Shown here piece after piece: positions 15,859-55,964 of a DNA stretch of 64,000 nt. The translations under genes were made by a program, and so were the position numbers. Where the stretch lies: contig OX597819.1 of assembly GCA_951406725.2 (NCBI GenBank), positions 92,938,001 through 93,002,000 of the forward strand, read 5' to 3'. Positions within the stretch are counted from its first letter, which is position 1. Each line of letters begins with the position of its first letter. Source of the DNA: Octopus vulgaris. Taxonomy: Eukaryota. The notes beneath the pieces were generated by a model. That model was not told the DNA's origin and made no database searches. It saw nothing but the letters and a program-made list of their open reading frames with translations.

Positions 15859-16495
15859 TAAGAAATGGAGCAATAAATAACAGCGAGAAGTGGATCATTG
15901 GTGTTATAAAGTCATTATTTAATTAAAATGAGAGTATGTTTACAGCTGTTTTAGTATATCAGTCTTGGCTAAAATTGCATTTACCGCGATGCAACTGATA
16001 GACATCATCAGAACGACTATATGGCAAAGATAAATAGAAGAGGAAAATAGAAAGAAAATGTACAGAAAGGAGAGGAAAAAAGGGAAAATGTTCGCTAATT
16101 CAATGGTCTTACATTTGAGTGGGGCCCCATAATCCAATATATTAGTTGGACGATAGAAGAGAATAGAGTCGGTTAAATCCAACTCTCTTCTATCCTCCAG
16201 CTAATATATTCAGTAATGGACCCCAACAAAATGTAAGACTATTGAATAAACGAACATTTTCTTTTCTTTTCTTTTTTCCTTTTGATGTCTATCAATTGCA
16301 ACGAGGTAAATACATATTTTATAACACCATTGATCCACTTCTCGCTGATATTTATTGCTCCATTTCTTAAATATATTAAACTTTTTTTCTTTTAATTTAC
16401 CTACTACCGTACACCTTATGACAAGGACCATACATACTGAAGTAATACCAGGAGTGTCTATGGATACTTCTATCCCTTAGATGGTTACATTACCT
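15859..16495. mobile_element. Diverged palindromic HHR-bearing element
   Basis: Inverted repeats 15859-15910 / 16318-16369 and ~16084-16161 / ~16184-16261; hairpin centre near 16175. Confidence 0.75.
15938..16014 (-). ncRNA. Decayed type I hammerhead ribozyme
   Basis: Reverse strand: gtt-CTGATGA-t-GTCTATCAGT...ACTGATATAC-tAAAA-CAGCTG-TA-aac; the expected cGAAA reads tAAAA. Confidence 0.6.
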
Positions 16496-17261
16496 ATATA
16501 TATATATATATATATATATATATATATATATATATATATACATGTGTGTGTATTAAATAATAAAACAAATGTTTTTACAACTGGTAGCTTACATATATCA
16601 AACGAAATTCCTATCATTATACAAAGCATCCTTAAAATAGCTCATCTTTCTTCATCTGCTTATATTCCAGCACCCTGAAGTGGTCGTCAAAATAAAAATT
16701 GACATAATTTTAACAACAAATTAAGTGCAGATGTTATAACCAGGAAAACCATATTGCCACAGTACCAGTATAAACCAGTATCAGCCGTCTAGTTGACTTG
16801 ATATTCGTGAAAATTCGATATTAGGGAAATCAAAATAGTTATATTCTACATGTATTGAATAATTTTTTCTTGGTTCTTATAAATAATACACTAATTTATG
16901 CACTCACACATATATATGTTTGAGTGTATATGTTTATGTGTGTCTGTTAGTTTGTGAGAGATTGCATGCGAGTGTGTCAGTGCACGGCTCTATGTGTGTG
17001 GGTTTGCATATAAGAAAACATTAGTATACAATAATTCAGACATCAAAATTGTTGCGTAATGAATTACAGACAACGTAGGAAATTTTCTGAAATGCTCTGT
17101 ATAAAAGAAACAGCCCTTGCTACCACAGCATGTACGATCCTTACAATGTCTCATTTTGCAGTAAGTGGTATTTTATAATAAACGCCTATAATGTTATGAG
17201 CTAAAGATATGTAAATGCCCATGCATGCTTAATTTTTCTCACATTTATTTTCTCACACATG

Positions 17262-17640
17262 GGTGCAGGCATGGTTGTAAGAAGCTCACTTTGAAAATCA
17301 CGTATTTCATATTCAGTCCCATAATGCAGAACATTAGGCAAGAGTTTTCTATATCTCCGGACTGACGAATGCCTTGCTAGTAAATCTATCAGGAGGAAAC
17401 TGTGTGGAATCGGTCGTGTATATATATCTGTATGTGTGTGTGTGTGTGTGTGTTTGTGTTTCTCCGTCAGTGTTAGTTTGTTTACGTCCCCGTAAGTTTG
17501 CGGTTCGGCAAAAAATGTCGATATTAAAAGTGCTGACTTGGAAAATAAGTGTTGGGATTGATTTGTTCAACCAAAACCTTTAAGGCAGTGCTCTAGCATG
17601 GCCACAGATTAGTGACTGATAACAGTAGAAGACAAAGATT
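17262..17640 (+). mobile_element. tRNA-derived SINE (family B), degenerate
   Basis: Colinear with the reverse complement of 9937-10385; 3' end gctctagcatggccacag..tgactgataacag. Confidence 0.75.
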
Positions 17641-18239
17641 TAATGACACCTCCTTACGTCTGACTAACGGGATCGGGAGTGCGACGTAAAAAAATATTGT
17701 CTCATTTATTTATGCTCGTACACAATTTGAGGTTTAATTAATTAGATTAGACAGTGAGTTTCATTATTTGAGACCCGATACATTACGTAAGAGTTAAGTA
17801 AGATGATCGAGAAAAATCGATTATTTGACCCTCTCCAGAATTTAAGGAGTTGCGTCTTTGCTAGACATCAATATTTAATATTGCTCAGCATTCAGCATTG
17901 TACAAACTAAAGTAAGCAATTTCAATATATTGTTACGCAATTATAGTTTCTGTTGCGCACACAATTGAAGTATAATTTCTGTATAAAAATATATGATTTG
18001 GTTTACGAAATTGGAAATTGTAAAACTTATTTTGAATAGATACACGGAAAATTTTTTCTGATACATCCCACGCCGGTTTCAATGCTGGAAATATTTTATG
18101 AATAGGAATTCCTCAACAAATACATCAAATTATAAGAGGAGTCTTCAATACGAAAGTAATTTGTTATAACTACACGCAAATTAATAGATAAGTAAATAAA
18201 TGAATGAGAGTATAGTATATTAATAATTCCCTTTTGTTA

Positions 18240-52727: not shown

Positions 52728-55118
52728 GTGCCTGGAATATATTCCAGTCACAATATATGAATTCAAGTAATCCGGTAGTACTCATAAAAAAAGCTCCTTA
52801 ATGTATCATTCTACAAAACATATAGAAAAATCATATAGACTACATAGTATGATACAAGGCAAAACGAGGAGTGTATAAAGTCATAAATTTTAGAGAAATA
52901 ATTTGATGGAATTTCATTTAAGAATAAGAAAAAATCAAATATCACGACAAATTGTTAAATAAAATTTCATCAAACTATTTCTATATCATTTATGATTTTA
53001 TATACATACACACACGCACACACACACACACACACACACACACACACACACACACACACACACACACACACACATACATATGTGTGTGTAAGTATTGAGG
53101 CCCAAGTTTCTTAAATTTTGGGAAGACCAAAATCATCCCGGTATGTACATATGTAATCAAGTTAACTTTTCTAGTCTATCATTTATATTATAATATTAAC
53201 ACTAAAAAAAAAAGCCAAAGAACTATTCAAATAGAATTTGAATAAAAAGAGTTCAGAAGAAAATTAAATTCTAAAACCCATTTAGTCCTGTCTGTTACCG
53301 TTTCTGTCATTATGCCTTCCTCGTTTACTAAAATATTGATTTTATGTTTAGCAATATAACTGAATAAATATAGTTTTAAAACGTAACGATAATCTGAAAA
53401 ATCTTACGCATTATCGCTATATTATCGCTAGTTTTCAGTTTTCTATTTCACATAAGGACAGTTATTTTATAAACTTGCAACCTCCATTTAACCTATTCAA
53501 TGTGATTGTAAGACAGTAGAGCAAGATTTGATGAAAATGTGTCTATCGTTTCTTCTTTGCCGTTGATTGAGATGAAAGCAGACTTCGGGGATTAAATGTT
53601 AATCATATTTCGAATCAAAAGGATTGGTTTCAAATTCAGTTTACTGTAGTGCTATGTATACGTTAGAAATGGCTCTCAACACTTCGCAAAGGAAACTGAC
53701 GGACTGACGTACTGACAGTTCATTGCTTAGAGAACTACTTATTTGTTCTATGTCCCTATATAATCACATAGTTTTACGTTAGCATTTTTATGGTCCATTC
53801 GACCGAATTAGTAAATAAACGGATTATTATTAAGCAGGCTCATATTATATCATTGATAGGGAGGATGCTTGCTCCTGAGACTATTTGCATGATAGTTCAC
53901 TCACAAGAATTTAGGCAACATAGGGCTGTGATTGAAGATATTTCATCAAAGTGGGTTCAGCGAGATTGGATCCGAAATCACGGGTTTGTGAAGTCATCAC
54001 ACAGCTAAGTACCGACTGGTATATATCTTCGAATTCGAATGATATACAAGTATTTTCGTTATCACAGAGATCTTGGTGAAAACAATGGTGAATCAGGTAT
54101 TGGGCGAACAAGATACGTATAAAGATGTAAAAAATGAGTGATTTTCAAGAATTATCACACTTTTAAAATATTATATCAGCATACATACTGTGCTGCATTC
54201 AAAACACTCACAGACTTTTAGAGAGGAGAAAATGGCCAATTGTAGAGTTTAATGGCTTTGAAAACAATTTCCTATCACAAAATCTATAGAGTACAGCTAA
54301 AGTCTACTCAGCAAATATCGATTAATACCTATATTGCTCAATACTAGAGCAGGAACAGTGAAAATTTAACACACCCAAAGGACGTTATTTAGCACAGAAA
54401 GTCACAAAGTTTCCTTTGAACTTCTCCTGCATGTAAATATTGCTACGCAATTTTTTCATATGTTGAAATTAAATACAGAATTTATAAAATATAGAAATCC
54501 GTAGTAAGATCAGAAATTTTATAAAAGATATGAATATCTGGGACATTGATTGTTGCAGTCAACAAAGGAAATGTCTTTGTAATAAAATTTACGGTATTGC
54601 TCTTCCAAACAGTTTAGTTCTAAGTTGAGACATGACTTGGTTAATGTAATGCATATGAATTTTCTGTGGTAAAAGAAAAGAGGCATGTATAACTCTAAGA
54701 AGTCCATTCGGCTTGATTCTGTGGCAGTAAATAATTATTTCTTTGCATAATAATAATAATAATAATAATAATAATAATAATAATAATAATAATAATAATT
54801 CCCTTTTTGCACAAATATATTCATATACTTGAGTTCATGTTGTTGGCCTTAATACCAACGTGAATATGAGAGTGTGCATAAATGAAATATAGTTGATATA
54901 TAACATGCTGTATAACTGTGTGTGTCTATGAGAGTGCGTATGAGAGAGAGAGAGAGAGAGAGAGAGAGAGAGAGAGAGAGTGTGATTTGTGTGACTGCGT
55001 GTGTAATACTGAACGTGAATTGAGACTGGATAGACGACGATGCATATTAGAAATATGCTTGTGTATGTTTTTCTCGATTTGTGTGACTGTGGCTGATGAT
55101 GTTATTGGGGTTTAACCT

Positions 55119-55402
55119 TGGGCTAGCATCTGATTTAGCAGACCAAGACACAAAGTCAGTTCATGCATATTAGAAATATTAGATAAAATAGGTATAACAA
55201 GCACTCACCATCTGTATGTGGCTAGCCACTGGGGGTGGGGTGTTACTGATGCTTTTAGCCCCAGGCAATCAACGTCACCAGATGGACTTTAGACACAATC
55301 TCAGTGCCCTTGTGTTATTTGCAAAGGGAGGTCATCTTCCCTCGAAAACCTAAGTACTGGGCTAGCACCTGATTTAGCAGACCTAGACACAAAGTCAGTT
55401 CA
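55119..55402 (+). repeat. 45-bp direct repeats flanking a ~195-bp insert
   Basis: tgggctagca(t/c)ctgatttagcagacc(a/t)agacacaaagtcagttca at 55119-55163 and 55358-55402. Confidence 0.85.
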
Positions 55403-55798
55403 GCTGTGCCTTTATATATATATATATATATAGTTTTTTTTTATTAAATTTCAGGTAAGTGTATGCATTACGTTAGGACACCAGGGTACAATTTTAATGA
55501 AACGTGGGTGTTCTAACTGGGGGAGTTAGTTCTAACTAGAGAGGCGGTGAAATGCTAACTGGTCGGTGCCATTACTGTAACAAATATTGATTTATACATG
55601 TTTCTCTTCACATACAAATTTAAAACTGAAACATGATATATGATAATAAAATACAGACAGAGACACACAGACACACAGACACATACACATATACTATATA
55701 TATATATATATATATATATATATATATATATATATATATATTGGTAAAAAGGTAAGATAACAAAAGAGATACCTGTAAATGTAAAGAACAATGTAATA

Positions 55799-55964
55799 GT
55801 GACAATTATTCGGTAGCCAAGATAAAACTCTGAGTTTCGGATGCCGAGGTGGAAATCCACATCACCATCTCTTCAGTTATCCGGCCAACTGAAGATGGTG
55901 GTGTGGATTTCCACATCGGCATCCGAAACTCAGAGTTTTATCTTGGCTACCGAATAATTATCAC
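55799..55964. repeat. 166-bp palindrome made of two HHR copies
   Basis: Arms 55799-55878 / 55887-55964 with spacer atccggcc. Confidence 0.93.
55820..55882 (-). ncRNA. Type I hammerhead ribozyme (mirror copy on + at ~55887-55943)
   Basis: Reverse strand: ggataa-CTGAAGA-GATG...CATC-c-GAAA-CTC-a-GAG-TT-ttatct. Confidence 0.75.

Follow-up and report, generated by a model that had tools for sequence, protein, structure and literature searches.

A 64,000-nt stretch of the 2.8-Gb genome of Octopus vulgaris (GenBank assembly GCA_951406725.2, contig OX597819.1, positions 92938001-93002000), referred to below as the window, carries three head-to-head palindromes, P1 (15851-16494), P2 (38976-39902) and P3 (55741-55977; window coordinates), which are almost certainly 5'-truncated insertions of three high-copy families of Penelope-like retrotransposons (Penelope-like elements, PLEs). 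Each family was found to possess two fixed 3' ends, a short one (S) and a long one (L), and in head-to-head loci the tail leading to L was as a rule present on one arm only. With a probability of roughly 0.55, such loci arise when a single cut within a (TA)n tract primes reverse transcription from both DNA ends, at the long and at the short site, and the two cDNAs are joined at their truncation points. The two fixed 3' ends per family, the one-tail counts and the non-nested arms are new here; head-to-head polarity, a one-sided tail, TA targets, self-priming and hairpin-derived small interfering RNA (siRNA) have already been published. The anatomy is that of ordinary PLEs, and the result is a modest mechanistic lead.

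Element families and the encoded protein

A first look at the genome returned 1922 candidates for P2, 273 for P3 and 498 for P1, and per family 40 candidates were scored and 30 fetched. Copies within a family were 97-100% alike for P2, about 94-98% for P3 and 78-86% for P1, and long copies traced upstream reached coding DNA. At the P2-family locus L103, an 842-codon stop-free frame lies between two pseudo-long terminal repeats (pLTRs), with the sequence of the P2 right arm flanking the frame. In L103 and in a second young element, L104, the pLTRs around the frame are direct, and upstream of the 5' pLTR both loci contain part of the element's sequence from beyond the tail. Across copies, 5' ends vary and two fixed 3' ends are seen. 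Homologous frames (31-48% identity) were located upstream of the pLTR at three P1 loci and two P3 loci, and homologous pieces of reverse transcriptase (RT) for these two families were found in L098, L099 and L101. The PLE origin and the inverted partial pLTRs proposed in the earlier note are therefore supported by upstream RT frames, pLTRs and 5' truncation. Its description of the three sequences as unrelated holds for the DNA, where common words of 10-14 nt are at the level of chance, but not for the proteins encoded upstream of other copies.

The predicted structure of the L103 protein (mean predicted local distance difference test score, pLDDT, 82.5) had telomerase RT (TERT) as its best PDB fold match (E 3e-8) and contained two long, low-confidence linkers rich in N, Q and T (493-553 and 637-698). 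Its RT motif reads GGLYRDD, and further motifs are RWAA at 45, DKT at 132, CNCRCASEC at 702, CQLCCVE at 799 and CIH at 829; the CxCx5C linker was seen in the P1 and P3 frames as well. Within the C-terminal 130 aa, a VIY..YIG-type motif with downstream R, E and N was recognised by eye; for GIY-YIG, Pfam gave no match, and the entries listed by the whole-protein fold search were all polymerases. Pfam scans of four of the frames found here and seven homologues yielded nothing at the curated level and no RT in the 842-codon frame, with an RVT_1 match below the cut-off in one of the seven homologues scanned, and a PDB sequence search with alignment A1 returned 0 matches.

Published work is cited here from passages of the papers concerned. 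For the Hydra clade of C-terminal endonuclease-positive (EN+) PLEs (Craig et al. 2021, PMC8557442), these passages list DKT, an RWK-like motif, the CxCx5C linker, CxxC/CxH, absence of CCHH, hammerheads and (TA)n insertion. The P2 protein carries the listed protein motifs and lacks CCHH, and a canonical hammerhead and (TA)n insertion were both found. The likeness extends to one frame with the RT followed by a putative EN, DKT instead of DKG, CxxC and CxH placed around the E and N of that putative EN, the hammerhead in the pLTR, inverted 5'-truncated copies and a one-sided tail. The elements differ in having RWA for RWK, a unit of about 4.3 kb with a long 3' untranslated region (UTR) where generally less than 3 kb is reported, and tails of about 65-140 nt against the 30-40 bp reported for PLEs (all PMC8557442). 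Assignment to the Neptune or Penelope/Poseidon clade was ruled out by DKT (not DKG) and by the lack of CCHH inside the EN. Judged by these motifs, with GIY-YIG read by eye, the three families would belong to the Hydra clade, and they are at most new families within a known clade. Because the motifs are shared by all three, common descent rather than convergence is taken to underlie the shared layout.

Fixed ends, single tails and polarity

Palindromes are present at all three sites, as the earlier note had reported. The P2 arms (38976-39390 and 39418-39832) are 415 nt each, 100% complementary and 27 nt apart; P3 has a self-inverted stretch of 185 nt (55790-55974, 91%); and the P1 arms match in pieces at 75-90%, with several internal deletions in the right arm. 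Hammerhead sense runs outward from the centre in P1, P2 and P3, and (TA)n-type repeats adjoin six of six outer ends (at 15756-15851 for the P1 left arm), so that the common polarity and the TA-rich microsatellite on both sides were confirmed. The stated arm overhang of about 60-130 bp fits P1 (about 125 nt, right) and P2 (70 nt, right) but not P3 (about 45 nt, left). Arms are nested and centres tight in P2 and P3. In P1, the left arm is 79% alike to the family copy L088 (reference positions 669-1004), the right-arm tail is common to L066, L070, L072, L080 and L088, and the centre of roughly 20 nt belongs to the S arm and the tail to the L arm.

The tail between S and L is about 140 nt long in P1, 70 nt in P2, 65-70 nt in P3 and 105 nt in P4, a fourth hammerhead family of the window that was used as a hold-out. 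Both ends are found in solo or tandem copies as well, and both lie at short AT-rich words that could base-pair with the end of a (TA)n tract. Head-to-head loci of P1-P3 numbered 53; the tip of the tail was on one arm only in 49, on neither in 4 and on both in 0. The four without a tip are L062, whose tail is truncated, L086 and L168, which start internally, and L040, which has two short ends. When the three window loci and P2 loci found only via a tail-containing query were set aside, one tail was counted in 38 of 42 (p 3e-8, against a 50% ceiling for independent choice of ends). P4 had one tail in 9 of 9 pairs, scored by hand; part of the P4 tail is self-complementary, and automatic scoring was ambiguous there.

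Polarity was tested in a genome sample by taking 1.5 kb on each side of a match and scoring an abutting inverted copy of the same family. Window loci and duplicate arms were left out of this sample (two P1/P3 loci and 18 of the 30 loci of one P2-family sample), and one insertion (L003/L120) was counted twice as a negative. An abutting inverted copy lay upstream (5') at 14/41 P2, 14/28 P3 and 9/28 P1 loci and downstream (3') at 0/97; the upstream counts are lower bounds, as longer stretches revealed more inversions. For P4, 9/19 loci were flagged upstream and 0 downstream, and the flag at L177, weak and distant, was dropped, giving 45/116 upstream against 0/116 downstream for the four hammerhead families together. 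Apparent downstream inversions at L016, L108, L114 and L069 were weak and non-abutting and were left out of the counts; three of the four matched the (TG/TA)-rich section of the 3' UTR. A control non-hammerhead repeat (52558-52734) had abutting inverted copies upstream in 0/29 and downstream in 3/29 cases (within 1.5 kb, 6 versus 4). In this sample the claim of the earlier note thus passed its own test, with a divergent bias and an enrichment over the control repeat.

Arms were non-nested in 13 of the 62 pairs of P1-P4, and in 7 of these 13 the inverted arm consists of tail sequence only, with no palindrome. The young locus L165 pairs a 3.8-kb S arm with a tailed L arm of 1.3 kb across a junction overlap of 1 nt, and in L168 and L171 the start of the inverted arm lies at a TA-like site inside the element. 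At P2 junctions the arms meet bluntly, share 1-5 nt or are separated by short fillers; that of L111 has a 16-nt overlap at a small hairpin. P3 junctions appeared to cluster just upstream of the ribozyme, in part a query effect. In 11 of 13 P2 loci the two arms were identical across the compared stretch (up to 166 nt), against 26% of 156 cross-locus comparisons, which points to one source for both arms.

One P2-family sample contained 12 new insertions, of which five (L108, L111-L114) begin at 39571-39583, a small hairpin downstream of an AT-rich stretch. This hot spot includes an initiator-like word, and it may be the transcription start of the pLTR. Summed contig depth drops 2.7- to 8-fold across it in four of four runs, which is a hint and not a measure of copy number.

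Hammerheads were located by a descriptor scan (type I: CUGANGA, GAAA, UH and three stems). The expectation of a ribozyme on both strands was borne out in P2, where both arms are complete (cores 39715+ and 39093-), but in P3 the left arm alone is complete (55876-) and in P1 neither is, which makes three of six arms. Both core blocks are deleted from the P1 right arm, and the P3 right arm begins within stem I and has a 2-nt deletion. Among P1 family copies, GAAA, stem III and UH are retained in 20/29 and both core blocks in 7/29; stem I, core and triplet are retained in 18/29 forward arms of the P3 family. An Rfam scan of the window gave 206 matches at E<=1, and the hammerhead model was absent among the 150 listed, nearly all of which were microsatellite-driven miRNA models and none of which reached the gathering score. 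Further descriptor hits were noted at 13941+, 50298+ and 28724-. The hammerheads would seem to be passengers of the pLTR, and the hairpin a by-product.

Two primings from one cut as the probable origin, and alternatives

The genomic products, including family identity, fixed ends, polarity, the single tail, junctions and arm identity at young loci, were observed directly; the use of the two sites on opposite strands in one event, like every enzymatic step, is inferred from them. The element's enzyme would cut both strands of a (TA)n tract, and one DNA end would prime at L and its partner at S, probably with a single RNA as template. The cDNAs would grow inward, halt independently or at the 5' end of the RNA, and be joined by microhomology at their 5'-truncation points. 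Displacement of the S-primed strand by the long-site cDNA would produce a palindrome, stalling of the long-site cDNA at the short-site cDNA would leave a tail-only arm, and loss of one product would leave a solo copy. More tentatively, and at somewhat less than an even chance, the arms may be the two cDNAs of twin priming at fixed sites, with one protomer of an RT-EN dimer on each strand and the same RNA as template. In LINE-1 (long interspersed nuclear element 1) twin priming, two primers from one target cut act on one RNA, and the resulting 5' inversion is joined through microhomology; annealing of the second primer occurs at varying internal positions, and no second copy of the 3' end is made. 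In the octopus families, the second start lies for the most part at a set position, and usually two copies of the 3' end are found.

If true, a twin-priming rule would cover the inverted pLTR, the one-sided tail, the tail-only stubs and the lack of tail-to-tail pairs, and fixed-site twin priming would supersede antisense self-priming as the explanation. The young open-frame family in this genome makes it testable, and the one-tail rule together with the non-nested arms is a sharp prediction for an existing in vitro system. Passages of PMC8557442 and PMC11167929 describe the way in which PLEs build their tandem and inverted structures as an unsolved problem. In the Poseidon element PAc (Frangieh et al. 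2024, PMC11167929), the protein cuts and extends both strands of AT-rich targets and starts RT at two adjacent internal sites bounding the tail, with the ribozyme dispensable for insertion, features that the octopus families would share; that element belongs to another clade, and in the passages seen its starts are not linked to two arms and no strand difference in start site is given. For Adineta vaga Penelope elements (Arkhipova et al. 2013, PMC3846280), head-to-head is described as the commonest inverted arrangement, with a tail optional on one inverted pLTR, and is read as self-priming on an antisense template; in the octopus families, many pairs are non-nested and junctions show plain microhomology. 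An inverted 5'-truncated copy, often with a tail at one end only, is drawn in PMC8557442. A literature search found no paper that ties PLE inversions to twin priming, older and subscription papers (2004-2006 on Penelope; 2014 and 2017 on hammerheads) being outside its scope, and absence of this link from print is not established.

Several observations weigh against two primings from one cut. The samples are the best-scoring 20-30 matches per family and not random. L040 has two short ends, and the joins in L108, L111 and L060 lie at small natural hairpins, which is what fold-back predicts. Arm identity suits fold-back or gene conversion equally, and in P3 identity within a locus (93.5%) is hardly higher than across loci (91.7%). 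Truncation points lie within 50 nt of each other in 7 of 19 P2 pairs (L093 being excluded from this test), where shuffling gives 1.4 (p 0.0002); such tight centres suggest fold-back, though one shared broken RNA would give the same outcome. A palindrome whose centre later lost sequence on one side could mimic non-nested arms, and tail-only arms become commoner the older the family (P1 5/11, P3 1/20, P2 0/22), the oldest family, P1, also having the longest tail, so that the two effects are inseparable. In P4, 5 of 9 pairs include the tandem unit, and nesting is not judgeable there.

Fold-back or self-priming, the cause put forward in the earlier note, is possible but rather unlikely as the general origin of these loci. 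The long-site strand would fold back at its truncation point and copy itself, the EN would trim the copy at S, and later deletions would create the asymmetry. The tight-centred pairs, among them P2 and P3 of the window, the hairpin junctions and the identical arms fit this sequence of events, and trimming at S would also yield the one-tail rule; self-priming is proposed in passages of PMC3846280, and PMC8557442 in the part cited assigns the tail to EN-mediated resolution. An extra event would be required, however, for every non-nested pair, including the young L165, the remaining 12 of 19 P2 pairs have truncation points 209-2606 nt apart, and S also ends solo copies, both sites being RT starts in vitro for another PLE (PMC11167929). 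Fold-back may have produced tight-centred pairs, but alone it yields neither the one-tail rule nor non-nested arms. Two independent back-to-back insertions into one (TA)n tract are very improbable: the families are abundant and have a common target, and such cases may include L040, whose two short ends are separated by 1.1 kb, and L056, where one more tail tip lies downstream, but the 45 versus 0 polarity, the one-tail rule, the (TA)n-free junctions and the identical arms would be left unexplained, and the polarity and tail counts largely refute this reading.

Equally remote is an inverted duplication born of replication after insertion, or a fold-back artefact of assembly or library. The window contains a single-copy palindrome that is not a PLE (7544-8167), the P2 arms are 100% identical, and no listed contig piece from four runs (38550-39450) bridges the P2 flank-arm boundary or centre, the left flank 38550-38947 being present in contigs of all four. 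The arms nevertheless end at the family's two fixed ends without flank DNA, within P1 and within P3 the two arms have diverged from each other, and many contigs show this anatomy; the family-specific end points and the diverged arms of P1 and of P3 make an artefact unlikely. A terminal-inverted-repeat DNA transposon of miniature or foldback type with a captured hammerhead has practically no likelihood, inverted arms and TA targets looking alike only at first sight: the two outer ends (S and L) are unlike, a single arm is present in most copies, the 5' end varies from copy to copy, and upstream lies an RT frame with a putative EN, which refutes it. Animal non-LTR (long terminal repeat) retrozymes (bioRxiv 10.64898/2026.07.22.740005) likewise have a type I hammerhead in PLE-derived repeats, but they are tandem non-coding units, and P1-P3 are truncated ends of a protein-coding element; a retrozyme was ruled out for P1-P3, whose copies lead into coding frames and show no tandem arrangement here. 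Inversions are not discussed in the passages found of that preprint. It is also highly unlikely that the hairpins are selected host features, as sources of double-stranded RNA or siRNA or as ribozyme switches. If read through, P2, P3 and P1 are predicted to fold at about -770, -145 and -245 kcal/mol, with P2 91% paired, and inverted Penelope copies yield siRNAs in Drosophila, where siRNAs match the inverted regions (PMC3681739, in the passages cited). Two of the three loci, however, are decaying with loss of ribozyme cores, none of 20 long frames in the window was recognised as a host exon, and the P2 core is predicted to be fully paired within the long hairpin. The long hairpins suggested in the earlier note are accordingly plausible in their predicted folding, but the ribozyme core would be hidden by pairing. 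The counts imply that the genome contains many potential hairpin loci, such loci being a known siRNA source in flies, and three cases per 64 kb mainly reflect PLE density in this genome.

Feature coordinates, P4 and other repeats

Table 1. Coordinates of the arms, ribozymes and related loci (window positions unless a locus is given; S, short 3' end; L, long 3' end)
Feature	Position	Strand	Remarks
P1 left arm	15851..16182	-	5'-truncated 3' end of old PLE family; S, tailless
P1 decayed type I hammerhead	15938..16014	-	left arm; CUGAUGA retained, GAAA changed to AAAA
P1 right arm	16184..16494	+	internal deletions take out hammerhead core; tail about 16370-16494 to L
P4, fourth hammerhead family	36160-36545	-	solo; ribozyme core at 36369
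P2 left arm	38976..39390	-	S, tailless
P2 minimal type I hammerhead	39020..39097	-	complete; descriptor scan
P2 centre	39391..39417	.	17 nt right-arm sequence and about 10 nt locally duplicated sequence
P2 right arm (pLTR)	39401..39902	+	70-nt tail 39833-39902 reaching L
P2 5'-truncation hot spot	39571..39583 (mirror 39225-39237)	+	new insertions; candidate transcription start
P2 minimal type I hammerhead	39711..39788	+	complete; 4-bp stem I, short palindromic stem III; descriptor scan
P3 left arm	55741..55886	-	centre loop and internally shortened tail to L
P3 near-intact type I hammerhead	55821..55882	-	descriptor scan
P3 right arm	55887..55977	+	S; without 5' strand of stem I
L103	G000:C11:64235000-64244800		young full-length P2-family element
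L104	G000:C24:3405500-3415300		young full-length P2-family element
Non-nested pairs	L002, L165, L035, L044, L064, L073, L074, L081, L082, L083, L090, L183, L184		

For P4, 1914 first-look candidates were returned and a tandem unit of about 475 nt was found in several copies; no PLE protein match was obtained in 20 loci. The family looks like a tandem retrozyme that follows the same two-end and head-to-head rule. A decayed piece of P4 tail lies at 1094-1193 (+). At L056 (1679-1710), a free-standing 24-nt P3 tail tip was seen in opposite orientation in (TA)n just downstream of another copy, and at L083 a P3-like copy (about 1825-1935) occupies the (TA)n immediately following a P1 copy, which indicates that the families pile up in the same tracts.

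The palindrome at 7544-8167 is a single-copy inverted duplication without a hammerhead, with arms of about 180 nt (97% alike) around a mixed microsatellite; a genome search matched only these two arm copies, and its origin is other than PLE. The control repeat, which we take to be SINE-like (short interspersed nuclear element), is abundant and interspersed (51891-52734, 15551-15754, 62071-62296, 268-412 and others), with partial tandem arrays of 184- and 300-nt period and a direct copy upstream in 16 of 29 genome copies. Within a group of LINE-type RT fragments at 57486-59367, one segment is inverted, and 115 nt are duplicated in inverted orientation (58168-58282 and 58579-58693, 94%). A 290-nt inverted pair (18235-18523 and 19933-20217, 78% alike, 1.4 kb apart) encloses microsatellites and a LINE-like fragment, and fragments resembling Mariner/Tc1 transposase were recognised by eye from translations at 1822-2295 (-), 33286-33690 (+) and 50842-51270 (+).

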